Below, piece after piece: positions 10,638-31,142 of a stretch of 32,000 nt of DNA. How positions within the stretch are numbered: position 1 is the first letter of the stretch; every line of letters starts with the position of its first letter. Below the pieces are notes generated by a model. That model saw only the letters and a list, made by a program, of their open reading frames with translations, was not told where the DNA came from and did no database searches. The DNA is from Dickeya solani IPO 2222 (GTDB lineage: Bacteria > Pseudomonadota > Gammaproteobacteria > Enterobacterales > Enterobacteriaceae). The stretch spans positions 3,810,001 to 3,842,000 of the forward strand of contig NZ_CP015137.1 of NCBI RefSeq assembly GCF_001644705.1, given 5' to 3'. The position numbers and the translations under genes are program-made.

Positions 10638-11396
10638 TTACAGCAGTTGGCCGCCCGAAATGTCAAAAGTCGTCCCGTTAGCCCAGGCCATGTCATCGGA
10701 CAGGATGGCCGCTACTGCTCCACCTACATCGTCCGGAAGACCCACACGGCCCAGTGCGATCCCCTGAGCAACATAAGCATTCACATCCTCATTATCTCGC
10801 ACCGCGCCTCCTCCAAAATCTGTTGCGATGGCTCCTGGGGCAATAGCATTGACCCTAATCTGGCGTGCACCAAGCTCTACGGCCATGTAACGGGTAAGCA
10901 CTTCAACGGCGGCCTTCACAGCCGCATAAATGCTGTACCCCGGCAAAGTAAAGCGTACAAATCCGGACGAAACGTTCAGGATACGTCCGCCGTCTTCAAC
11001 AAGCGGTAACAGCTTCTGAGTCAGAAAAATCGGGCCCTGAAGATGCGTGGTCACCAGTGAAGTAAACTGCTCTTCGGTCGCGTCAACAAAGTTCGCAAAG
11101 AGGCCGTTGCCCGCATTGTTGACGAGGAAGTTGAAACGCTCACGGCCAAAGTCGTTTTTCAGCGTTTCAGTCACGGCGCTTGAAAAAGCCTGATAACTGG
11201 CGGTATCGGTGATGTCGAGCGGCAACATGACGGCCTTGCCGCCTTGTGCTTCGATCTCCTGTTTCAGCGTCTCTGCTTCTGCCGCGCCGCTGCGATAGGT
11301 ACCGATGATGTGGACGCCGCGCCTGGCGAGGTGGAGTGCCATGTTGCGGCCGAGGCCACGGCTGGCGCCGGTGATGAGTGCGATAGGGTGAGTCAT
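10638..11396 (-). CDS. SDR-family oxidoreductase
   Basis: 252-aa ORF. It has the cofactor motif TGASRGLG, the NNAG motif and the catalytic YxxxK (YAAVKAA). Confidence 0.85.
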   Translation of the reverse strand: MTHPIALITGASRGLGRNMALHLARRGVHIIGTYRSGAAEAETLKQEIEAQGGKAVMLPLDITDTASYQAFSSAVTETLKNDFGRERFNFLVNNAGNGLFANFVDATEEQFTSLVTTHLQGPIFLTQKLLPLVEDGGRILNVSSGFVRFTLPGYSIYAAVKAAVEVLTRYMAVELGARQIRVNAIAPGAIATDFGGGAVRDNEDVNAYVAQGIALGRVGLPDDVGGAVAAILSDDMAWANGTTFDISGGQLL

Positions 11397-11556
11397 GAGC
11401 TGTCTCTTTCAGGTTATTAGGGCACCTTCCGGTGCTTTCTTGACCTGCTCATAATAGGTAATGACCGGCGTGTAGCCTACGCCTGATAAGCTCATTTTCT
11501 TGCCTGATTGTATCAATCATCTTGCGTGGTATTACGTCGGTGATAGAATCAGCCTC

Positions 11557-12456
11557 ATGAATGACTCTCTTGCACCGCATCTTGAAATCGCCCTGCGCCA
11601 CGCGTCGCCGGGATTGACTGTCACACGCATCCCACGTGTGGATCTCTGCGTGGGGCAAGGCTCTACGGACAAGGCTCCCTGCCTGTATCGTTCGATGATC
11701 TGCTTCATCCTGCAAGGCTCAAAGCGCGTTGCGATTAACGACACGGTTTTGAGTTACAACAGCGAACAGTATCTTATCAGCGCGCTTGAGCTGCCTTTGA
11801 TCGGACAAATTCTTGATGCTGAAGATGGGCAGCCTTACGTAGCAGTATCGCTGGTGCTGGATCCGGCCATACTGGCGGAATTAGCGGCGAACATGCCTTC
11901 TGTCCGCGAGAGCGAACAGAAGGGGATTGGCATCATGATAAATCCCATGACCGCTTCGCTCCGCGATACGTTACTCCGCCTAATGTTGTTGCTCGATACG
12001 CCTGACGATATCCCTATTCTTGGCCCTATGCTCGAACGGGAATTGCTTTATCGTCTCCTGCAGGGCCCTCAGGGACGACTGCTGCGTCAGATTGCCCAAC
12101 CCGATGGCGCACTCAATAGCATCCGGCGCGCTGTTGGCTGGATCAGGGACAATTACAGTACCCGTCTTCGCATCGAAGCGTTGTGCGAGGTAAGCGGTAT
12201 GAGCAGGGCAAGCCTGCATCGCCATTTTCTGTCAATGACAGGTCTCAGTCCTGTTCAGTATCAGAAACAGCTTAGATTGCAGGAAGCTCGCCAGCTTTTG
12301 CTTACCGGTGAACATCGCGCATCTGACGTGGCGTTTGTCGTCGGCTATGAAAGCGCATCACAGTTTAGCCGTGAATATCTCCGGCAATTTGGCGCGCCGC
12401 CTGTCCGCGACGTGCGCGCCATACGGATGGCGATAGATACGCCAACTAAGGCGTAG
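11557..12456 (+). CDS. AraC-family transcriptional regulator (AraC_N-type N-domain)
   Basis: ORF 11500..12456, with the likely start at ATG 11557 (MNDSLAPHLE). The C-terminal double HTH reads GMSRASLHRHF...GYESASQFSREY. It is divergent from the SDR-GST-LEH operon. Confidence 0.8.
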   Translation: MNDSLAPHLEIALRHASPGLTVTRIPRVDLCVGQGSTDKAPCLYRSMICFILQGSKRVAINDTVLSYNSEQYLISALELPLIGQILDAEDGQPYVAVSLVLDPAILAELAANMPSVRESEQKGIGIMINPMTASLRDTLLRLMLLLDTPDDIPILGPMLERELLYRLLQGPQGRLLRQIAQPDGALNSIRRAVGWIRDNYSTRLRIEALCEVSGMSRASLHRHFLSMTGLSPVQYQKQLRLQEARQLLLTGEHRASDVAFVVGYESASQFSREYLRQFGAPPVRDVRAIRMAIDTPTKA

Positions 12457-12992: not shown

Positions 12993-14147
12993 CTAAATAG
13001 CTTCTCATATTATCGCTCCACTTTAGCCAGCCCATGTTGATTGCCGGCGAACGGTGAAGCCACGTTCATAAATTGTTTTACCCGTTCCAGTAATTGCCAC
13101 ATATATCGATTCTGGTGGTTTCTCGTTATGGTTTCATGTAACGACAGCCACAGCCGTTCTATCGGATTCAGCCACGGCGAATACGTTGGTAGGAACAGCA
13201 ATCGGAATTTCGTGTTTTTCTCCAGCCAGCGCTCCACTTTTCGGCTTTTATGGATGATGTAGTTATCCGCTACCAGTGTGATAGTTTTCGCCCGCCGGTA
13301 TGTGCGCCGCAACGTTTCTAACAAATTGATAAATAAATCAGAACACTTGCTGCTGCCACTAACGTAGTGGATTCGCCCCGTACCCGAATGTAACGCGCCC
13401 GCCAGATAATGTTTTTGGTTCTGTCCCGGCGTGGCAATGCGTTTCTGATGCCCTTTTGGCATCCAGTCCGCGCCAATTTTCGGGTTCAGGTCGATATCAA
13501 CTTCATCCTGATAAAACACGGGATGATTCGTTGACTCCGGAGACAGCGCCTGCTCAATGGCGAGCCGTTTTTCCTCATAGTGTTGATCTTTGATTTTCAA
13601 CGTGGGCGCGGCTCTGCGCCAGACCATACCTACCTGTTTCAGATATCGGTGCAAGGTAGCGGTGAAGCCTCAGGTCGAAAAGTTGGTTGACGATACGGGT
13701 CGGTAACTCCGTGCTCCAACGAGAGCGCAGCCAGCCAAAATCCTGCGGAGAACGTTGTACCAGAAGCGGTAGGACATGCAGGATATCCGTGACGGGCCAG
13801 CGTGGAACACGTCCAGCCCTGAGACTTTTTAGTCCTTCAACATCATGTCAAGTAAACCAATTTATCCATCTTCCAACAGATGAACGAGCGGCACAAAGTA
13901 TTCTGGCGACCTCAGTGACCGTCCTTCCCCGATGCAGCATCAGTATAGCAATGAGGCGTCTGGCATGATTTTTATCGCGGTCTGTTGGGCTTCTTTACGC
14001 ATCAGTTGTCGTTCTTCATCAGGAATTGCTGCTATGATCGGCATCGCTTAGTCCGGCTGGTGGTTTGTTCTTTTTGGCGATTGATCAGATCGCACAATTC
14101 GGACTGAGTTCCCTTCAAGTGATCTACTATTTGGCGAAGTTATTTAG
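12993..14147 (-). mobile_element. IS630-family insertion sequence (decayed)
   Basis: Terminal inverted repeats CTAAATAGCTTC (12993-13004) and GAAGTTATTTAG (14136-14147) match 11/12. The element is ~1.15 kb and its flanking TA is compatible with an IS630 TA target duplication. It encloses an IS630-like transposase reading frame. Confidence 0.8.
13010..14044 (-). pseudogene. IS630-family DDE transposase, disrupted
   Basis: The C-terminal 214 aa (13010..13654) are intact and IS630-like (PVFYQDEVDIDLNPKIGADW...VADNYIIHKS). The N-terminus from ATG 14044 (MPIIAAIPDEERQLMRKEAQQT) is frameshifted. There is an in-frame TGA in WINWFT*HDVEGLK and a 14-nt near-duplication around 13655-13685. Confidence 0.75.
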
Positions 14148-14179
14148 AGATAAAATTAACATTATTAATTTTATCTCTA
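14146..14179 (-). terminator. Perfect AT-rich palindrome downstream of the ABC gene (possible operon terminator)
   Basis: AGAGATAAAATTAA-catta-TTAATTTTATCTCT; the arms reach 15 bp if the flanking T/A is counted. It lies 13 nt after the stop codon. There is no clear T-run, so terminator function is uncertain. Confidence 0.35.
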
Positions 14180-14191
14180 GTCTCTTTTCTT

Positions 14192-15997
14192 TTAGATGGC
14201 AACCTGTGCATCTCCGGAGCCGGAGTTGTACTGACTTCGCTGCAAATTCAGCAGGGCATAATATTCACCCCGCTTTATCTCCAGTTCAGCCGGTGTTCCA
14301 CTTTCAACAATTTCGCCTTGTTTTAATACAATTATCCGCGTGGAGTTTTTTACGGCACTCAGACGGTGTGTGACCATTACGGATGTTCTTCCCCTGACAA
14401 GTTCAGAAAAGCGAGCAAATAACTCGGTTTCCACTCGCGGATCCATTGCGCTGGTTGGTTCATCAAGTATGATTAATTCCCCGTCAGAAAACAGAGCACG
14501 GGCCAGTGCAAGGCGCTGCCACTGACCACCAGAAAGTTCTGTACCGGAATATTCTTTCCCGAGGAAACTGGTTGCATCATGGGGGATTTCCAGCGGGAAC
14601 TGAGCCTGTTCACAAGTCTGTAAAAAGCGTTGTTGCTCGACCGTACTCATGTTGTTCCTGAACGTGACATTCTCCTGCACCGTCATATTGTAATGGCCAA
14701 AATCTTGAAAAATAGCACTAAGGCAACGATGCCATGTCCTTATATCAATGCTGGCAACATCAATCCCGTTCCAGGTAATACGGCCGGATGTGGGGTGGTA
14801 CAAACGGCAGAGCAGCTTAATCAGTGTTGATTTACCTGCGCCATTTTCACCAACAATAGAAAGCTGGTCACCAGCATGGATCGTTAGATTAATATTGCTG
14901 AGAACGTTGTGGCCGTTCTCATAAGAAAAGGAAACATTTTCAAACTTGATTTCATCTAGAGGAGGTATCTCAGAGAGGGAATAGCTGTTCTCCTGCGCAA
15001 CGCTTTCAAGTTCTCTCAGTCGAGCAAAGAAACTAAAACAGACGCCGATATTAGCAAAGGAATACACCATCCACTGGCAAGATAAACCAAAGAAAGAAAT
15101 TGATTGTATGGTGCCCAGTAACCCTCCGACAGAAATTCTGCCTGCCTGAAGATATTCAACAAACCAGTACATAACACCTAGGATGGATGCCAGGTATAAA
15201 AGATTCCATGGCTGGGGTCTGAGTAATTGTTTGCGTCTGACCTGATTTAATTCATTTTCCAGCTCTTCGAAAGCCTGCGTGTGTTTGGTGAAAAAAAATG
15301 ATGCTGAACGGAAAATTCTGACCTCTTTAGCTAGCTTCACATCAAGTAGAACACCCAGATAATACCTTATCAGGCGAGCGGCGGTACCTTTTCCCAGCAG
15401 AGCTCGAAAAATATCGATTTGTGAAAGTGCAACAGTAAAAGTGATCGGGATAAGCGGCAGAAGAAATGCCAGAGGAAACCACCAGACAACTGAAGCCAGT
15501 ACCAGAGACAAAGACAACAGCGTTAGTATGCCGCGAAATATATCAACAAGATTAACCAGAAGGTTCAGGGGACGGTGAGCTGCTTCTCTTGAAAGAACCT
15601 CAAGATTATCGTGTATGTCCGGTTTCTCGATAATTTTCAGGTCTTCAATGCGGCAGGCTGCCTCCATAATAGTTCGTTGTGTCAGATAGGTGGCATGCTG
15701 ATTCAGTATACTTTGTAGAGTACTGATAATGGGAGCCAGCACACCGGGGAAGACAAATGTCAATGCCCAGAATACTGCCACGGTCATCAGACCTGAATGA
15801 TCCGGGCTACTGATGATATTTCCGAGCCGGATGCTTGCCATCACACTCGTGGTAGGCAATAACCCCTGCAGGGCAATGAGGATGATAAACAGCGTGGATA
15901 GCCATGGTGATTTCCTGAATAGCAATGAAAGTGAATAGGTCACCAGATTCAGTTTTTCTTTTACCTTCTGCATCAGAAAAGCTCCATTGTCAGGCAT
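14192..15997 (-). CDS. ABC exporter, fused permease/ATPase (type I exporter), no peptidase domain
   Basis: 601-aa ORF with six predicted N-terminal TM helices. It has Walker A GENGAGKST, the signature LSGGQWQR and Walker B LIILDEPTSAMD. An alternative start at ATG 15973 overlaps the upstream stop codon (TGATG) and has GGAG 8 nt upstream. Confidence 0.85.
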   Translation of the reverse strand: MPDNGAFLMQKVKEKLNLVTYSLSLLFRKSPWLSTLFIILIALQGLLPTTSVMASIRLGNIISSPDHSGLMTVAVFWALTFVFPGVLAPIISTLQSILNQHATYLTQRTIMEAACRIEDLKIIEKPDIHDNLEVLSREAAHRPLNLLVNLVDIFRGILTLLSLSLVLASVVWWFPLAFLLPLIPITFTVALSQIDIFRALLGKGTAARLIRYYLGVLLDVKLAKEVRIFRSASFFFTKHTQAFEELENELNQVRRKQLLRPQPWNLLYLASILGVMYWFVEYLQAGRISVGGLLGTIQSISFFGLSCQWMVYSFANIGVCFSFFARLRELESVAQENSYSLSEIPPLDEIKFENVSFSYENGHNVLSNINLTIHAGDQLSIVGENGAGKSTLIKLLCRLYHPTSGRITWNGIDVASIDIRTWHRCLSAIFQDFGHYNMTVQENVTFRNNMSTVEQQRFLQTCEQAQFPLEIPHDATSFLGKEYSGTELSGGQWQRLALARALFSDGELIILDEPTSAMDPRVETELFARFSELVRGRTSVMVTHRLSAVKNSTRIIVLKQGEIVESGTPAELEIKRGEYYALLNLQRSQYNSGSGDAQVAI

Positions 15998-16827
15998 TTC
16001 CCGTTCGGGAAAATGACAAATTCATCAAAATGTCGAGGAGTATTCAGAATTAGCTCCATCGCATCCCTGGTTTCCGTTCTGTAGAGGGAGGATATCATTT
16101 TTACACGGTATGTCTGGTTACCCATTTTTTTGCACGCATGCCGTACAGAGTTTATTGACAGTGAATGTCCATCTGGTGTTGCCAGAAATGTCATGTTTTC
16201 AGAAAATACGCCGTATGATGTGATATCGATGCTTCCATGAAATTTGTTTTCGAGTGTCTGACAGAGCGAAGGGTAATGGAGCCATGAAGTGTGCGTTGCA
16301 TGAAAGTTGTGGCAGATGACAAAAATTAATTCATAACCAAGCTGGATAGCTAACCCGATCTTCTCCGCCATAGCGGTCTCACGCTGTTCCGGCGTTGCTC
16401 CAGTCATACTTAATGTACTTTGTCGATCAAACTCCAGCAAACTGATCAACAGACGCTGCTCAGCAAGAGGAACTAAGCGAATACTTTTAATATAATTTTC
16501 ATGAAGTGTTGTGGATAAAGGTAAATCAATCCCCGCAATAACACATGTTGCAGGTAAAGCATGGAGGAAAGTTGCAAACTCCTCAGAACGCATCCACCAG
16601 TACGCTGACGATGTAAGGTACGACATGTCCCCGGTATTTACTTTTCTAAAGCGTCTGAGTGTAAACACAATCAGGTCTATAGTCGGACATTCGACAAGAA
16701 CTATGCTACGTAACTCCCTTCGTAGCTTATGTATAAAGGCATTCCGAAACGCCCATGACTCGTCTGAACCATGGCTGTTCTGACCAATAAAATAAATATG
16801 CTTTTTAGCCTGCTTTGTATACAACAT
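15973..16827 (-). CDS. Erythromycin-esterase / ChaN (TIKI-TraB)-like superfamily protein, function unknown
   Basis: 284-aa ORF. The N-terminal YFIGQNSHGSDESWAFRNAFIHKL resembles the Ere-family G-E-x-x-H-G-x-x-E motif, and the later VICHNFHATH resembles the AHNxH motif. The start overlaps the upstream gene by 23 nt. The family assignment is from memory only. Confidence 0.5.
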   Translation of the reverse strand: MLYTKQAKKHIYFIGQNSHGSDESWAFRNAFIHKLRRELRSIVLVECPTIDLIVFTLRRFRKVNTGDMSYLTSSAYWWMRSEEFATFLHALPATCVIAGIDLPLSTTLHENYIKSIRLVPLAEQRLLISLLEFDRQSTLSMTGATPEQRETAMAEKIGLAIQLGYELIFVICHNFHATHTSWLHYPSLCQTLENKFHGSIDITSYGVFSENMTFLATPDGHSLSINSVRHACKKMGNQTYRVKMISSLYRTETRDAMELILNTPRHFDEFVIFPNGKCLTMELF

Positions 16828-18331
16828 TCATACTCCGCGCTATAAGGTGATGTTGTCTTAATAAATACCGTTCATCACGAGAAAAATAGCTGTCAATCTG
16901 TTCAAGAGGGGTGGTAGGGAAAAAGTCAGGGAATTCGTTTTTCTCTCCATCAAATAAACTGCGTGAATTAATAAAAAGATGAAACAGAGGAATGTCATAG
17001 TTTGCAAGGCAGGATACTTCATATAATATAAGACTCTGAAACTTGGGGTGTGATCCGGGGTAGAGTAAAAATTCATCAATTAACGCTGGTAGCTTTTTTT
17101 TGATATTTATGCTTGTCTCTGGATGAATTATTTTATTAATGATAAGTAGATAATAAGCTGTTGTGCGAACGAGGTAACGTGGTTTAATTTCTGAGTGGTT
17201 TTTCAGGAGGGAAATTATTCTCGCATGGTTTCTTTTTAATTTGAGAAACGTGTCGGTATATCCCTCTGTTACATCAGAAATATACTTCTTAGACTTCACC
17301 GGAAGACCGTGGTAGTGTGGGAAGTTTTGTGTCCGTTTGGCAAATCCTCGTTCATATCGAACCTGAATATTTTCAGTCGCATCATGGATGGCATGAGGAT
17401 AGGTAAAAGACTGAAATATATTGGTGACAGCGGTAAGTGCTGATGTATGCCCTAGTCCATTCTTGACAACATCCGGGCTCTGAAGCAATCCGCTTTGATA
17501 TATAGAACGTTCAAATTCCGGGGCGTCATCAAAAAAATACTGGAAGCTGGTTTCGGGATCTATCAGCCATACAGTGTCAGCATCTACAATGAAGTTATCA
17601 AAATGACAGTCATTGATATTCAGAAGATCGGCTAGAGCTAGAATGTTACCGTATCTTCTGTAAACTTTGGCTGCATCCACGCTCAAATCCAAGCCCCTGT
17701 TTTCGACAAATTCCTGCCACAAATGTGTTTTAAGACTAAGTGTCACAGGGCAGACATTAGCTAACCCGATAATGTTGCAGATCTCATTAAGTACATTTTC
17801 AATGCCAGAATCTCTGGGTTTGTAAATAAGCTTGAAGCTTCCGAGGGCTAGTATTACTGGTTGTTGTCCATTGTCATGCCGGTCACCAGCAGCTAAAGAC
17901 AGCTTTCCCGGAGTTGAAGAAAGTGGTGGGCAATTATAAATATCAATAAGTAACTTATGTTCCTCTATTAAGCGGATAAGAAAATTATTTATGTTTGCGA
18001 TAGTGGTATCACAGATATGTTCTGCCAGTTGACTAATATATTGATTGTGGTTTCTTAGCCCTGGCAGCCAGGAATTATCATCATTCTTGAAATAGGAAGT
18101 ATATCTATCTGAATGTGAATCGGGTTGTGTTTTCAGCCATTCATCGAATTTAACAACAAAATCAGGAAGGTGGATTTGATCAAGTGATTCAGAGATACTC
18201 AATGACACATCTGTAAAATCGAGGTGATGCAGACCATAATCAGTCAGCATCTGTTGCATCTTTTTATTAAAATTTCTTATATATGGGAAATAGAGGTAAG
18301 CACGATATGGTTCTGACAGTATGTAGCGCAT
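16805..18331 (-). CDS. Stand-alone LanM-type (DUF4135) lanthipeptide dehydratase/kinase domain protein, no LanC cyclase domain
   Basis: 508-aa ORF carrying the LanM N-domain motifs in order. These are GDRHDNGQ (149-156), KLIYKPRD (167-174), DCHFDN (241-246, DxHxxN), LIDPET (256-261), SGLLQSP (280-286), RYLVRTTAYY (385-394, the Arg/Thr elimination motif) and DIPLF (446-450). The protein ends ~60 aa later, with no WCxG or CHG Zn-ligand motifs. Confidence 0.75.
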   Translation of the reverse strand: MRYILSEPYRAYLYFPYIRNFNKKMQQMLTDYGLHHLDFTDVSLSISESLDQIHLPDFVVKFDEWLKTQPDSHSDRYTSYFKNDDNSWLPGLRNHNQYISQLAEHICDTTIANINNFLIRLIEEHKLLIDIYNCPPLSSTPGKLSLAAGDRHDNGQQPVILALGSFKLIYKPRDSGIENVLNEICNIIGLANVCPVTLSLKTHLWQEFVENRGLDLSVDAAKVYRRYGNILALADLLNINDCHFDNFIVDADTVWLIDPETSFQYFFDDAPEFERSIYQSGLLQSPDVVKNGLGHTSALTAVTNIFQSFTYPHAIHDATENIQVRYERGFAKRTQNFPHYHGLPVKSKKYISDVTEGYTDTFLKLKRNHARIISLLKNHSEIKPRYLVRTTAYYLLIINKIIHPETSINIKKKLPALIDEFLLYPGSHPKFQSLILYEVSCLANYDIPLFHLFINSRSLFDGEKNEFPDFFPTTPLEQIDSYFSRDERYLLRQHHLIARSMNVVYKAG

Positions 18332-18351
18332 ACATCTTATCCTTGCTTCCT

Positions 18352-18382
18352 AAAAAAGGGCAGCCGATGGCCGCCCTTTTTT
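18352..18382 (-). terminator. Intra-operon hairpin/attenuator between the precursor and modification genes
   Basis: The minus strand reads GGGCGGC-catcg-GCUGCCC (7 bp, with one G-U pair that would be an A-C mismatch on the plus strand), followed by TTTTTT. It starts 2 nt after the peptide stop codon and ends 20 nt before the next ATG. Confidence 0.6.
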
Positions 18383-18383
18383 A

Positions 18384-18563
18384 TCAATTAAAGAATTCTT
18401 CAGTAATTTCCTGAAGCTCTTTGATTAGTACTTCTTCAGAGGAGATATTAATACCACTACCTCCGCAGTCGCAGGTACCACTGGCGCAGTCAACACCACT
18501 ATTAGCCATATAACCGCGAATATCGGAGATCTTACTCGGTGCTACTTCGATAATACGTTCCAT
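18384..18563 (-). CDS. Candidate RiPP precursor peptide (59 aa)
   Basis: Hand translation gives MERIIEVAPSKISDIRGYMANSGVDCASGTCDCGGSGINISSEEVLIKELQEITEEFFN. The Shine-Dalgarno GAGGT ends 6 nt before the ATG. It is the first gene of the operon and is followed by a hairpin. It is below the 60-aa cutoff of the supplied ORF track. Confidence 0.7.
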   Translation of the reverse strand: MERIIEVAPSKISDIRGYMANSGVDCASGTCDCGGSGINISSEEVLIKELQEITEEFFN

Positions 18564-19373
18564 TTGTTACCTCGGATTTTGTCAATTACTACGTAAGTGG
18601 ATAAACAATGTCTTCGCGAGATACAACTTTTGTGTACACAGAGAAAGTATAAAATGGGAATAATAGATTAAAATGTGATCTGTCTCTGATAAATAATCTG
18701 ATGGTAATTTGATTTTTTATTTTCCAGTGATTTGAGTTTTTTTGTTCTTATGTATAGTTTCTTTTTCTATGATCTCTAATGTTTTTTCTTTATGTGCAAA
18801 CAATATGCATTTTTATTATTCATATTTTGTTTCATGTTTTTACCCCTATTGAGGATGTGAAATTATGGTAATTAAGTGAAAGATTAAAAATCTAATGGAG
18901 GGACATTAAGCGATTATTTCTTGCACGGACAGTAACATATATCAGATTTGGAAATTTGTTCTTCAGAGCAAGTAAATAAATTTACTTATGGTAATAATTT
19001 ATTTTGATGAAAGTTATTTATTGTTAACGATAAACTATCGAGCAGATTGATTTATGTAGCGAACATTCTGGATGTACTAATGTCTCTGATAAACTACAGT
19101 TTTTTCAATGTGTTCGCAAGAGTTATACAGAAATGTTCGAGCTTTAACTGAATATTAATGTGTGCTTAATAAAATTATAATGAATTTTTAGTTCGCAATA
19201 ATGTTTGATTCATTATCAGGGGAAAACCGTTAATTGGCATAATTACTGTATCTGGTTTCAAGTCAGCTTCACGGCTGTTCGGTGTTCACTTTGCTTCAGC
19301 CATGGCGTATAGCATTGCTAACTAAAAGAATAGCACTTGTACTGACGGGGACTACTTCAAGGTTATCTATTAA

Positions 19374-20033
19374 TCAATCTACTGAAGACTCAGGCAACAT
19401 GATGGCTATTTTCTCTACTCTGGGTATTAACGAAGGATACATCCGCTTACCGGTCACGACACCTACCAAGTTCAATGCAGCGCTGTTTTTCACCCGTCCC
19501 TTCTGTAATGCGTAACGCATGATGTTGCACAGGTGCTGCCGGGTACGGGCTGCCACTTCCAGTAAACCTTTTTTCTCAATCCCTTTCAGCAGGTCGATGA
19601 AATGACGGGGTTTTAGTTCCGTGACGGGCAGGTGCCCGATAACCGGGAAAATATGGTTGTTCATGCTGGCAAGCAGACGGGCGGCGTGGTTCTCTGACCA
19701 TGTCCGGTTGCTCTTGTGCCAGTCCAGCGCTACGTCCCTGAATGATTTTTCTGGTGAGCGGGGCGCTTTTTCTGCCGCCCGTTGGTGCGCGGGGTTGATA
19801 TTCTGCGCCAGCAGTTTACGGATGCCGTCACGCTGTTGACGCGCATCGGCCAGCGATACATCGGGGTAGGTACCTAAACCGAGGCGGGATTCTTTTCTAT
19901 TGATACGATATTTGAGATACCAGAGACGTGAACCGCCTGGATTAACTAAAAGGCACAGACCGTGAGAATCGGAAACTTTGTAGGGTTTTGCAGATGGTTT
20001 TAAGTTGCGGATTTTTGAGTCGTTAAGAGACAT
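19374..20033 (-). pseudogene. P4-type tyrosine integrase, 3'-truncated (N-terminal ~200 aa only)
   Basis: MSLNDSKIRNLKPSAKPYKVSDSHGLCLLVNPGGSRLWYLKYR...GTYPDVSLADARQQRD is the classic P4/CP4-57 Int arm-binding and SAM-like N-terminus. The catalytic R-K-H-R-H-Y domain (~220 aa) is absent. Similarity ends near 19400, where AT-rich DNA begins. Confidence 0.8.
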
Positions 20034-20206: not shown

Positions 20207-20282
20207 TGGCTCCTCTGACTGGACTCGAACCAGTGACATACGGATTAACAGTCCGCCGTTCTACCGACTGAACTACAGAGGA
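20207..20282 (-). tRNA. tRNA-Asn (anticodon GUU)
   Basis: The minus strand reads TCCTCTGTAGTTCAGTCGGTAGAACGGCGGACTGTTAATCCGTATGTCACTGGTTCGAGTCCAGTCAGAGGAGCCA. This matches my recollection of E. coli tRNA-Asn, including the encoded CCA. Confidence 0.95.
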
Positions 20283-28050: not shown

Positions 28051-28446
28051 ATTAACCTCATGTTGATGAATGTATTCAGACAACACACAGTGTTATTGCA
28101 GCGTAGCGGTCAGAGATGTCGTGAGACATACGCAGGCCGATACCCTGCTTTGTTTGTGGGGTGTTGTGTCTGCCGCGCGAAATATTACAACGAAATCGGA
28201 TTTTTGCCCTTTTTTTCTGCTGATAAAATGAAATGCATCACTGAATGAGGCCATAAATGTGCTATTTCCCTGCTGTTCATGGCTAAAAGCCTTGAAAAAA
28301 TCAGGTGTATTTATTTATATAACATTTTACTTATCAATAACTTGTGTATTTATTTCTGTGCGTCGGCAGGCGGATTTTGCGTTAATCATAACTTTTTCTT
28401 ATATCTCCACCTGAGTCAGCAATAAATCCAATAATCGTCGCTGAAC

Positions 28447-28467
28447 CATTTTTATCCGCTCACTATT
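28447..28467 (-). promoter_or_regulatory. Second lac-operator-like sequence
   Basis: The minus strand reads AATAGTGAGCGGATAAAAATG, an 18/21 match to E. coli lacO1. It shares the exact 12-mer TTATCCGCTCAC with the operator at 23661-23681. It sits in the AT-rich intergenic region between the DAACS gene and fhlA. Confidence 0.3.
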
Positions 28468-28964
28468 TTATTATTGGTTGATGACATGAGTGATTAATAA
28501 ACAAGAATTACCCTTCTATTCATGAAAATATAATCTGGCGTAATACAGGAAAGCCCGTATCGCAATTGAATAAAAACAACAGTAATTTTAATGACCTGCT
28601 TTAATTGCATCGGCAGGGCCATAAATGTTGTTTTCTTTTTTCGGGATGTAATTGAAGTGTTGCATTTTAGTTTTAATATGACGATATCTTAATCAATCCA
28701 GCGTGATGGCGACGCGCCAAGACAATATTGCCTCAACAAGAATCGGTAATATCACCTGTATAAAATACAGCCACAATAGTAAACGGTTCTTATTATTATC
28801 TGCCGCGACAGGTGGTAATCGCTCATCGGGTAACCGCTTGTCGCCGGCGTGCTCCGGTTTAGTACGATTCAGATCAAGCTATTGGTGAGGCGACGTGTCA
28901 TTTCCGTAGTGAAGCTCTTACACTATTTCCCCACACTATCTATGGAAATTGGATTACGGTGGTT

Positions 28965-31142
28965 ATGGCGACACGACTGACAGACACTCCGTCCCGACTG
29001 TCTATTCTGTGGCAGGATGCCTTGCTGAAAATTTCTCAGTCACTGTTGCAACAACGCACCATTCCTGACCTGTTGCGGGCGCTGGATGGCGTGTCGTTTT
29101 CGGTGGTGCGCTTTGGCCGGGTCAACCTGATCCTGCTTGATCCGCTGCATAACCAGATGAATTTCTATCGCCACGACCGCGAATCCGGGCAGACCCAGTG
29201 CAGCGAAGAGGCGATTCTGCTGGCTAACGGGCCTGGCGGGGTGGTGTGGAGCACGCAGACCCCGCTGCATTGCGATCGTCCACACTTTCAGCGTGATTTC
29301 CCCCACCTGACTGACCAGCCGGCCTACGCCGGCCTGAGTGATTATTGTCAGTTGCCGCTGCGTGGCACGCACCGCGGGTTGGGCGGGGTGGAGTTCCTCA
29401 AGACCGACGGTAGCCGTTTCACCGATAACGAACTCGATTTTTTCCAGGCGCTGGCCGGGGTGGTAGCGCTGGTGGTGGAAACCATTCGCGAGCGCGAACA
29501 GGTGCTGCAGGAAGAGGAGCGGTTGCGCCATGAGCGCGACCATCTGCGCATTCTGGTGGATGTCACTAACACCGTGATTTCCAAACTGGAACTGAAGGCG
29601 CTGGCGCTGGAAGTGTCGCGCGAAATCCACCGCTTTTTCGGCATCGATTTTATCGCGCTGGTATTAAAAGAAGGCGAGGGCGAAGCGCAAAGGCTCAAGT
29701 ATCTCGCCACCGTTTACCCGCCGGCCGGCGCGCCGAAAACGGCGCAAGGCGAGGTGGATCGGGCGCAAACGCTGGCAGACGGCGTGATGGCGCAGCATCA
29801 GCCGCAGTTGGTACGGGTGACGGAACGCCCCCAAACCGGCGAACCGCGCCCGCTCAGCCAGTGGTTCGACAATGCGTTGTCTCACGTCTGCCTGCTGCCG
29901 CTGGCGTTTGGCAACCGGACGCTGGGCGTGTTGGAGCTGGCGCACCGCTCAGCGCTGGCGGTCAGCGAGGCGGATCTCCGGCTGCTGCGGCAGATTGCCG
30001 CGCGTATCGCCATTGCGCTGGATAACGCGCTGGCCTATGAGCAGATCACCCGGCTGAAGGATTCGCTGATCCATGAAAACTTCTACCTTACCGAACAGCT
30101 TACCGAGCATATCCATCAGCGCAGCGGCGATGAGTTTGGCGAAATCATCGGCCGCAGTGCGGCGATCCGCCAGGTGCTGGAACAGGTAGAGATGGTGGCG
30201 GCCAGCGACAGCACCGTGCTGATTCTGGGGGAAACCGGCACCGGCAAGGAACTGATTGCCCGCGCTATCCATAGCCTGAGCCAGCGTAAAGCCCAGCATA
30301 TGGTGAAAATGAATTGCGCCGCCATTCCGTCCGGCCTGCTGGAAAGCGACCTGTTCGGCCATGAAAAGGGCGCGTTTACCGGCGCCACCAGCCAGCGTCA
30401 GGGGCGGTTTGAACTGGCGGATAGCAGTACGTTGTTTCTGGATGAGGTGGGCGATATCCCGCTGGAATTGCAGCCCAAACTGCTGCGGGTGCTGCAGGAG
30501 CGGGAGATCGAGCGGCTGGGCGGCAGCAAGGTGATTCCGGTGGATGTGCGGTTGATCGCCGCCACCAACCGCGACCTGAAGCAGATGGTGGCGGACCGCG
30601 AGTACCGCAGTGACCTTTATTACCGGCTCAATGTCTTTCCCATCGTCATTCCGCCGTTGCGCGAGCGGCCGGAAGATATTCCACTGCTGGTGAAGTTTTT
30701 CACCCGCAAGATTGCCCGTCGTATGAACCGTACCATCGACAGCATTCCGTCCGACATGTTGCGTCAGCTGAGCCGTTTGCCGTGGCCCGGCAACGTGAGG
30801 GAGTTGGAAAACGTGGTAGAGCGCGCGGTGATCCTGACGCGCGGCACCACGCTCAATCTGCAAATGGATGAATTGCAGCATCACCTGTCGCCGCTGGAGG
30901 TGCCCAAACCTGCGCACCGCGACCTTACGCCGCCGCCGGTGGCGGCCGAGCCGTCATCCGGGCAACTGGATGCTGAAGAGGAATCGGAGCGCGAGCGTAT
31001 TATCCGGGTACTGAGGGAAACCAACGGTATCGTCGCCGGCCCGAAAGGCGCCGCCGCCCGGCTCGGGCTTAAACGCACCACGCTGTTGTCGCGCATGCAA
31101 CGCATGGGGATTTCCGCCCGGGAAATCGAGGGAATTTCCTGA
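28965..31142 (+). CDS. fhlA: Sigma-54-dependent formate hydrogenlyase transcriptional activator
   Basis: ORF from GTG 28959 or ATG 28965. It has two GAF-like N-terminal domains, an AAA+ domain ([35 protein letters not shown]) and a C-terminal HTH ([20 protein letters not shown]). It is colinear with E. coli FhlA. Confidence 0.85.

Follow-up and report, generated by a model that had tools for sequence, protein, structure and literature searches.

We analyzed a window of 32,000 nucleotides (nt) from the potato pathogen Dickeya solani IPO 2222 (contig NZ_CP015137.1, positions 3,810,001 to 3,842,000 of the forward strand), in which an island inserted at a tRNA-Asn gene carries a compact cassette of four genes. 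The cassette encodes a precursor peptide of 59 amino acids (aa), a 508-aa enzyme with the DUF4135 domain of LanM-type lanthipeptide synthetases, a 284-aa enzyme with the fold of the erythromycin esterases (Ere), and an ATP-binding cassette (ABC) half-transporter (Table 1). The initial annotation of the locus had proposed a new minimal, microcin-like pathway for a ribosomally synthesized peptide modified after translation (RiPP) with an unusual set of enzymes. This proposal is supported in silico by (i) the conserved synteny of the four genes, (ii) the selection acting on them, (iii) the lack of a description of the enzyme pair in the open-access literature searched, and (iv) the lack of a match to any established lanthipeptide class. 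Judged by the gene content, the product of the cassette is probably a secreted, modified peptide of a new kind.

The four co-directional open reading frames (ORFs) described in the initial annotation are all present on the minus strand at the same coordinates in the ORF list. The genes for the 508-aa and 284-aa proteins overlap by 23 nt (16805-16827), as reported. The TGATG stop/start overlap described for the 284-aa and ABC genes holds if the ninth codon of the latter, the ATG at 15973-15971, serves as its start. The longest ABC ORF (601 aa) starts 24 nt further upstream, at 15997; the ATG at 15973 was taken as the start because the N-terminus then agrees with that of 595-aa homologues. Genes for LanC, LanB, a protease, LanFEG/LanI immunity proteins, or a dedicated regulator, which had been listed as missing, were likewise not found anywhere within the 32-kb window.

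Related loci were retrieved via either of the two enzymes from genomes and metagenomes. We obtained 16 further loci from at least 10 enterobacterial genera, and the gene order in them is always peptide, DUF4135, Ere-fold, and ABC wherever the contig allows it to be seen; in most of these loci, neighboring frames either overlap or adjoin. This outcome bears out the co-occurrence of the four genes, for which a survey had been suggested.

Table 1. Features of the cassette, of its island, and of related loci (positions in the 32-kb window unless a locus is named)
Feature	Position	Strand	Evidence and remarks
Precursor peptide gene, 59 aa (MERIIEVAPSKISDIRGYMANSGVDCASGTCDCGGSGINISSEEVLIKELQEITEEFFN)	18384..18563	(-)	ORF list; GAGG ribosome-binding site 6 nt upstream
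Intrinsic-terminator-like attenuator hairpin (GGGCGGCC-AUC-GGCUGCCC + U6)	18352..18383	(-)	Between precursor and enzyme genes
Stand-alone LanM-type kinase/dehydratase (predicted), DUF4135 only, 508 aa, without LanC domain	16805..18331	(-)	PF13575, TIGR03897
Compact erythromycin-esterase/Tiki-superfamily fold enzyme, 284 aa, cytoplasmic	15973..16827	(-)	AF2, Foldseek, hhalign
ABCB-type half-transporter, 593 aa from ATG at 15973	14192..15973	(-)	ABC_tran E 6.5e-35; without C39 peptidase domain
AT-rich upstream region, non-coding, presumed promoter/regulatory	18564..19373	(-)	GC 0.304, without credible ORF
Truncated tyrosine-integrase gene, N-terminal arm-binding and central domains only	19374..20033	(-)	PF13356 E 1e-24, PF22022 E 2e-23
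tRNA-Asn (GTT), insertion site of island	20207..20282	(-)	ARAGORN; Rfam RF00005 72.6 bits
IS630-family transposase relic (DDE_3 ORF and frameshifted helix-turn-helix remnants), distal island border	13010..14150	(-)	PF13358 E 5.5e-30
DsbA-like genes of related loci	L002 12177-12872; L007 12123-12785; L008 10108-10818; L009 5851-6510		Also in L003, L013-L015, L018

Proteins encoded by the cassette

The assignment of the 508-aa protein to DUF4135 is borne out by a match to PF13575 (E 4.9e-69) that covers positions 5-376 of the 378 in the profile. The TIGR03897 model of LanM is matched at positions 4-519 of 932 only, with a score of 206.9 against a cut-off of 304, and the LanC-like cyclase domain PF05147 has no match in the protein, which ends at residue 508. 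Since the TIGR03897 match stops at position 519, the cyclase half is not present. The protein appears in NCBI and UniRef as 'type 2 lanthipeptide synthetase LanM' or 'salivaricin A modification enzyme'; the LanM label overstates it, because it scores below the TIGR03897 cut-off and the whole cyclase half is missing. Its only meaningful relatives in the PDB by sequence are CylM and LicM2, and its nearest full-length relatives are LanM proteins of Gram-positive bacteria, with about 25-29% identity. A protein listed by NCBI for D. solani is 100% identical to it, and the same DUF4135 gene is carried by the model strain D. dadantii 3937 (ADM97754.1).

In CylM, residues K274, D347, H349, N352, and D364 serve phosphorylation of the substrate, and residues D252, H254, R506, and T512 serve elimination of the phosphate (PMC4550811). 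By residue alignment, their counterparts in the 508-aa protein are K171, D241, H243, N246, and D258 for the phosphorylation step and D150, H152, R385, and T391 for the elimination step. All nine residues are invariant in 19 aligned family members that diverge to 39% identity and have a uniform length of 500 aa. For this reason, the 508-aa enzyme looks like a complete kinase/dehydratase in predicted function and not merely a kinase. Excised dehydratase domains of LanM proteins are able to dehydrate on their own (PMC10676384).

The 284-aa protein had been described as Ere/ChaN-like. Direct sequence searches give no support to this description: no match was found in Pfam (E <= 1), NCBIfam, or PADLOC, or in the PDB with either phmmer or a profile, and the gathering score of the erythromycin-esterase family PF05139 is not reached. 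Comparison of structures and profiles, on the other hand, does support it. The alignment-based AlphaFold2 (AF2) model, with a predicted local distance difference test score (pLDDT) of 90 and a predicted template modeling score (pTM) of 0.90, has its best Foldseek matches in the Bacillus cereus proteins Bcr135/136 (2rad/2qgm/3b55) and in EreC (6xcs/6xcq), with E values from 1e-11 to 1e-9 and template modeling (TM) scores of 0.56-0.69 on the query. A profile search of 1.84 billion representative proteins returned only 11 at E < 1e-10; the weak tail of this search consists of ~400-aa proteins carrying PF05139, and alignment of the 284-aa family with these PF05139-positive relatives by hhalign gives a probability of 99.2% (E 1e-19). 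Membership of the 284-aa protein in the erythromycin-esterase/Tiki superfamily fold is thereby confirmed at the level of predicted structure and profile comparison.

Residues H19, E46, R149, N174, and H176 of the 284-aa protein align with the invariant Ere positions, namely the His of the GxxxHG motif, the Glu, the Arg, and the HNxH motif, and ~120 residues of the Ere helical insertion are absent from the hhalign alignment. Four further residues, C47, C172, H173, and C189, are invariant in the 284-aa family specifically. The protein has neither a signal peptide nor a membrane segment. Its genomic context argues for a peptide substrate rather than a macrolide. Its most likely predicted role is hydrolytic trimming, that is, removal of a leader and/or an acidic follower from the precursor. 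This role is favored because (i) the His/Glu/Arg/His set is intact, (ii) the cassette encodes no other protease, and (iii) Tiki/TraB relatives are proteases, and Ere-like and Tiki/TraB genes noticed in graspetide loci have been proposed as peptidases (PMC8939145). The extra invariant Cys and His residues by the catalytic positions make a cyclase-like or cysteine-dependent role possible.

The NCBIfam and PDB matches of the ABC protein are exporter-type ABC proteins. It has no N-terminal C39 peptidase domain, and its N-terminal half is hydrophobic from residue 25 onward. Conservation between loci is highest for this protein (52-71% identity), followed by the precursor, the DUF4135 enzyme, and the Ere-like enzyme. 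The fastest-evolving enzyme, the Ere-like one, and the fastest-evolving part of the precursor, its linker and tail, may be interaction partners.

In 9 of the 15 informative loci, a gene for a DsbA-like oxidoreductase lies directly 3' of the ABC gene and in some of them overlaps it. The predicted product is periplasmic, with a signal peptide, a CPHC active site, and matches to the Pfam families DSBA/Thioredoxin_4. Such a gene is not present in the Dickeya window. The presence of this accessory suggests either that the exported peptide keeps reactive thiols or that the accessory protein aids self-protection. The most divergent cassette, L006 (uncultured, SRR32407041), has in place of the DsbA-like protein a 272-aa protein with a GS...SDVD nucleotidyltransferase-like motif that follows the ABC protein (11194-12012).

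The precursor family comprises 19 clusters, all from Enterobacterales, and was found only with this cassette; a search of NCBIfam with the peptide gave no match. The initial annotation called the peptide Cys/Ser/Thr/Gly-rich, which proved too simple. Comparison of the 19 distinct homologues revealed several parts of different conservation: (i) a near-invariant N-terminal half, MERI(V/I)E(V/I)...I..IRGYMANS(G/S/T)xDC(A/G)SGTC(D/E), (ii) a hypervariable Gly-rich linker of 5-20 residues, often with His or Cys, (iii) an acidic segment with moderate conservation (...E(D/E)xLxKELEEVS...), which falls in a C-terminal helix, and (iv) a C-terminus consisting of FF or FY followed by one residue. Residues 15-32 (IRGYMANS..DC.SGTC) are essentially invariant, and 18 columns are strictly so, including I15-S22, D25, C26, and S28-C31. 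Of the Cys, only C26 and C31 are invariant, and of the Ser/Thr, only the three residues S22, S28, and T30; at position 33, several members have H, S, G, or L instead of Cys. The five invariant residues S22, C26, S28, T30, and C31 provide both the Ser/Thr and the Cys of a ring-capable core.

This conservation is not a by-product of nucleotide identity. Two to four synonymous codons are used across the loci at invariant precursor residues, which points to constraint at the protein level, and the ratio of nonsynonymous to synonymous substitution rates (dN/dS) of the precursor is 0.04 at dS ~1.4. The AF2 model of the precursor alone is of low confidence (pLDDT 65), and only its pattern of helix and disorder was used; it places helices at residues 9-20 and 42-51, the latter with pLDDT ~80, around a disordered center. 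This anatomy suggests a fixed, constrained segment for modification held between two recognition or handling helices. To our reading, which has no statistical support, the C-terminal helix resembles an ELxxEL-type motif of class II leaders.

The hairpin noticed after the stop codon of the peptide gene proved to be real: its folding energy is -27.1 kcal/mol (z -4.78), none of 200 shuffled sequences is as stable, and a U-run follows it. In all 11 loci examined for this feature, a GC stem and T-run follow the peptide stop codon, the stem sequences being different. A functional attenuator keeping the precursor mRNA in excess would be expected to show this pattern.

Distribution of the cassette and comparison with known systems

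The DUF4135-only, Ere-fold, and peptide families consist of 22, 23, and 19 clusters, respectively, and each of them is restricted to Enterobacterales. All named members are annotated as 'hypothetical', save for the LanM label. Genera with members of these families are Dickeya (including D. dadantii 3937), Pectobacterium, Pantoea, Erwinia, Serratia, Citrobacter, Enterobacter, Buttiauxella, Scandinavium, Dryocola, and Salmonella; no close copy of the cassette was found in complete Escherichia coli genomes or in PLSDB plasmids. Its surroundings differ each time, and include an IncFII plasmid, a region resembling an integrative and conjugative element, integrase islands, and sugar operons. Since the same gene order is kept within these differing surroundings, the cassette moves as a unit. 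The horizontal acquisition postulated by the initial annotation is thus upheld by the 16 syntenic loci, their mobile contexts, and their different neighborhoods.

For every gene of the cassette, including the 59-aa ORF, dN/dS is 0.04-0.30 where synonymous divergence is not saturated. The four genes are under purifying selection.

One locus from outside Enterobacterales was noticed in a metagenome-assembled genome of Acidobacteria (L011, 4443-9328). It contains a 488-aa DUF4135-like ORF (25% identity), preceded by a 71-aa ORF and followed by a 744-aa Ser/Thr-kinase-like ORF, and may be another context of DUF4135 without LanC.

No description of this gene combination was found in the open-access literature; a preprint on fosfazinomycin that mentions PF13575 is unrelated. 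A cyclase of the LanC type, which is expected of a lanthipeptide cluster, is absent both from the 32-kb window and from the genes and six-frame ORFs of the related loci inspected. Comparison with the established lanthipeptide classes revealed no match to classes I, III, and IV (LanB; kinase-lyase-cyclase), V (LanK/LanY/LanX), or VI (LanKCb). The closest resemblance is to class II with its LanM enzymes (CylM, LctM, LicM2): the cassette shares with it a lipid-kinase-like N-terminal DUF4135 dehydratase domain in which every phosphorylation and elimination residue is present, a short precursor containing Ser/Thr and Cys and encoded directly upstream, and an ABC exporter in the operon. It differs from class II in having neither a C-terminal LanC-like zinc cyclase domain nor a separate LanC, an exporter without a C39 protease domain, a precursor without a double-glycine leader, only about 25% identity to any full-length LanM, and hosts from Enterobacterales. 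The absence of a LanC domain excludes the cassette from class II membership.

Several less canonical systems share single features with the cassette. The dehydrazole synthetase CcaM, a LanMbC enzyme that combines DUF4135 with a zinc-free class III-type cyclase domain, is the nearest atypical DUF4135 dehydratase and makes dehydro residues but no lanthionines (PMC10676384). It keeps, however, a required cyclase-like domain, and acts independently of a leader after azole formation by YcaO, whereas the cassette has no cyclase-like domain and no gene for YcaO, a dehydrogenase, or a radical S-adenosylmethionine (rSAM) enzyme. Class V pathways (triantimycins, lexapeptide, cacaoidin) are also free of LanC, use separate small enzymes, and allow spontaneous formation of methyllanthionine (MeLan), which has been demonstrated in one class V pathway (PMC11186320); they depend on an unrelated kinase and a HopA1-like lyase, occur in Actinomycetota, and have no Ere-fold enzyme. 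The clostridial orphan LanM-like protein CA_C0082 is another non-canonical relative of LanM outside a standard cluster, with the difference that in proteins of this type the cyclase domain survives in degenerate form, the kinase and elimination residues are lost, and neither a precursor nor an exporter accompanies them (PMC10301443).

The Ere family (PF05139; EreA/B/C, Bcr135/136) shares with the 284-aa protein its fold and the aligned catalytic residues. The latter is ~120 residues shorter, has the extra invariant Cys and His, and is encoded in a peptide-modification operon and not in a resistance context. In overall design, the cassette resembles the class I microcins (modified, <5 kDa): it is a compact enterobacterial operon for a precursor, modification enzymes, and a dedicated exporter. 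Class I microcins (MccB17, MccC, MccJ25) are encoded by compact mobile operons with one to three modification enzymes and an exporter that doubles as an immunity protein. Their chemistry is of the azole, peptidyl-nucleotide, or lasso type, and none of them involves a LanM-type dehydratase or an Ere-fold enzyme. The lanthipeptide genome-mining surveys that we consulted anchor on the LanC domain and would therefore miss cassettes without LanC.

Predicted pathway and alternative explanations

The cassette is best read as a new LanC-less RiPP family of Enterobacterales that combines DUF4135 with an Ere-fold enzyme. We assign a probability of about 0.62 to the reading that this mobile four-gene cassette directs dehydration of the precursor, formation of rings or disulfides, processing by the Ere-fold enzyme, and export by the ABC protein. 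In the predicted pathway, the terminator-like hairpin would attenuate read-through into the enzyme genes, so that the precursor is transcribed in excess. The DUF4135 enzyme would bind the precursor by one of its two helical flanks, phosphorylate S22, S28, and/or T30 using ATP, and eliminate the phosphate to yield dehydroalanine (Dha) or dehydrobutyrine (Dhb). Given that no LanC-type cyclase is encoded in the 32-kb window, two fates of C26 and C31 can be envisaged: (i) they may add to the dehydro residues to form small (methyl)lanthionine rings, with the pairs S22-C26 and S28-C31, either spontaneously or aided by a partner enzyme, or (ii) their thiols may stay free and be oxidized after export. 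The second fate would explain the DsbA-like gene in 9 of 15 informative loci. Finally, the translationally coupled 284-aa enzyme would trim the leader and/or the acidic follower, and the half-transporter would export the product and probably also provide self-protection.

Several observations weigh against this scheme. The product and its chemistry are predicted from genes alone, and no gene for a protease, immunity protein, or regulator in the 32-kb window backs an antibiotic. The precursor is strongly anionic, with a net charge of -7, which is unlike most membrane-active bacteriocins, and its apparently near-invariant 'core' reverses the usual RiPP pattern of a conserved leader and a variable core. 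CcaM needs a non-catalytic cyclase domain and prior modification of its substrate (PMC10676384), and on this ground a stand-alone DUF4135 enzyme may be inactive towards an unmodified precursor. Decay of the cassette is also seen in some strains: in D. dadantii, fragments of the DUF4135 and Ere-like proteins are fused into one protein of 315 aa, in one D. solani strain the DUF4135 gene is split into pieces of 304 and 269 aa, and the Ere-like gene of Buttiauxella is truncated to 239 aa.

Trimming is the role preferred for the Ere-fold protein, and its alternative is a thioether cyclase unrelated to LanC that would act via C47, C172, H173, and C189, possibly with zinc, the leader being removed by host peptidases. 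These four residues lie where parallel strands end C-terminally, beside E46 and H176, their clustering being derived from the topology of the model only; LanC itself uses a Cys-Cys-His zinc site, and the Ere-fold gene is translationally coupled to the dehydratase gene and always co-occurs with it. We nevertheless consider a cyclase rather unlikely, since no Ere/Tiki member is known to form C-S bonds, the known ones being esterases or proteases, and the general-base/oxyanion set of the hydrolysis type is fully kept. The nature of the product is subject to similar arguments. The biosynthesis might be the same and the product not an antibiotic: a peptide secreted by the ABC protein could bind metal through its Asp/Cys core and Gly/His/Cys linker, or serve as a signal. 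The negative charge of the peptide, the enrichment of His and Cys in the linkers of several homologues (e.g., GGHHH, HGQGGGHC), the failure to find an immunity gene in the window, and the invariant core, which suggests a fixed ligand or target over an arms race, all fit such a product. Its existence remains unlikely in our estimate: in none of the loci inspected does the cassette have a linked uptake receptor or regulator, a patchy spread on mobile elements is typical of competition factors, and an exporter can double as immunity protein, as in other microcins.

The initial annotation left open whether the product is dehydrated or phosphorylated. A pathway ending at a phosphopeptide, with DUF4135 acting as a Ser/Thr kinase only and the Ere-fold enzyme or the exporter handling the phosphopeptide, would agree with the fact that LanM dehydratase domains are kinases first and that elimination-deficient LanM mutants accumulate phosphopeptides (PMC4550811). 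Dehydration stands as the expected modification, and a phosphorylated end product is very improbable, because the four elimination residues D150, H152, R385, and T391 are invariant in a family that has diverged to 39% identity. There is hardly any chance that the cassette is a functionless, decaying remnant of a class II lanthipeptide cluster of the Gram-positive type, with a LanM that lost its cyclase half. This explanation would account for the Gram-positive LanM proteins being the nearest full-length relatives (~25-29% identity), for the truncated integrase and IS relic of the island, and for the broken copies in some strains. It conflicts with the intact four-gene units in at least 10 genera, the per-gene dN/dS of 0.04-0.30, the invariant catalytic residues, the preserved attenuator and gene overlaps, and the uniform 500-aa length of 19 DUF4135 members; a pseudogene or remnant was rejected on the basis of the dN/dS values and conserved synteny. 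We also rejected a defense system, as PADLOC-DB has no match for the peptide, DUF4135, or Ere-like proteins, and the ABC protein has generic P-loop matches only.

A more far-reaching proposal joins several of these predictions. The cassette would define a new lanthipeptide-type class, in which a stand-alone DUF4135 enzyme cooperates with an Ere/Tiki-fold protein acting either as a cyclase or as a new leader/follower peptidase, and its product would be the first thioether/dehydro-type microcin of Enterobacterales, directed at a highly conserved target; the latter is suggested by the invariant 18-residue core. We put this joint proposal forward tentatively, as it is doubtful that all of its parts hold together.

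If the product is what the genes suggest, the cassette would represent a seventh enzyme configuration in lanthipeptide-type biosynthesis. The erythromycin-esterase/Tiki fold would also gain its first function in RiPP biosynthesis; in other RiPP loci, the presence of its homologues is unexplained. A modified peptide of Gram-negative plant- and animal-associated bacteria that is potentially active on close relatives would have a bearing on the biocontrol of soft rot and on narrow-spectrum agents against enterobacteria. The cassette further exposes a blind spot, since mining anchored on LanC overlooks LanC-less systems and the enzyme is at present misannotated as a complete LanM. As a four-gene system native to close relatives of E. 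coli, it should be easy to reconstitute.

Island setting and the rest of the window

The tRNA-Asn gene, the truncated integrase gene, and the insertion sequence (IS) relic that had been described as bordering the cassette were all recovered with ARAGORN and Pfam. The integrase fragment has no catalytic Phage_integrase domain by Pfam. Positions 14000-14150 of the window share ~86% identity with IS630 transposase genes annotated in E. coli. A search for an att-like direct repeat matching the 3' end of tRNA-Asn gave none; thus, the distal border of the island is set by the IS630 relic alone. The AT-richness of the block, also pointed out previously, is evident from a GC content of 40.6% for the cassette with its upstream spacer and of 30.4% for the spacer alone, compared with 49.8% and 58.0% in the flanks. 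By gene, the GC content rises from 0.39 for DUF4135 to 0.42 for the precursor, 0.43 for the Ere-like enzyme, and 0.46 for the ABC protein.

Regulation of the operon probably resides in the 810-bp spacer that precedes the precursor gene. Promoter-like matches in it are no more common than in shuffled sequences, and no promoter was assigned. With its 30% GC, the spacer is a candidate for silencing of the H-NS type, as judged from AT-richness. No small ORF resembling an immunity peptide or a regulator was found in either spacer. Rfam identified the tRNA alone in the window, and two sub-threshold matches were regarded as noise.

The remaining window encodes ordinary transporters, regulators, and enzymes, including an ORF of the size of a beta-galactosidase. 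A second AT-rich intergenic stretch (~40% GC) is located at 28100-28950, after a sodium:dicarboxylate symporter gene and before the long ORF 28959-31142. The motifs of this ORF resemble those of a sigma-54-dependent activator, and the adjoining AT-rich stretch looks like normal regulatory DNA between genes.

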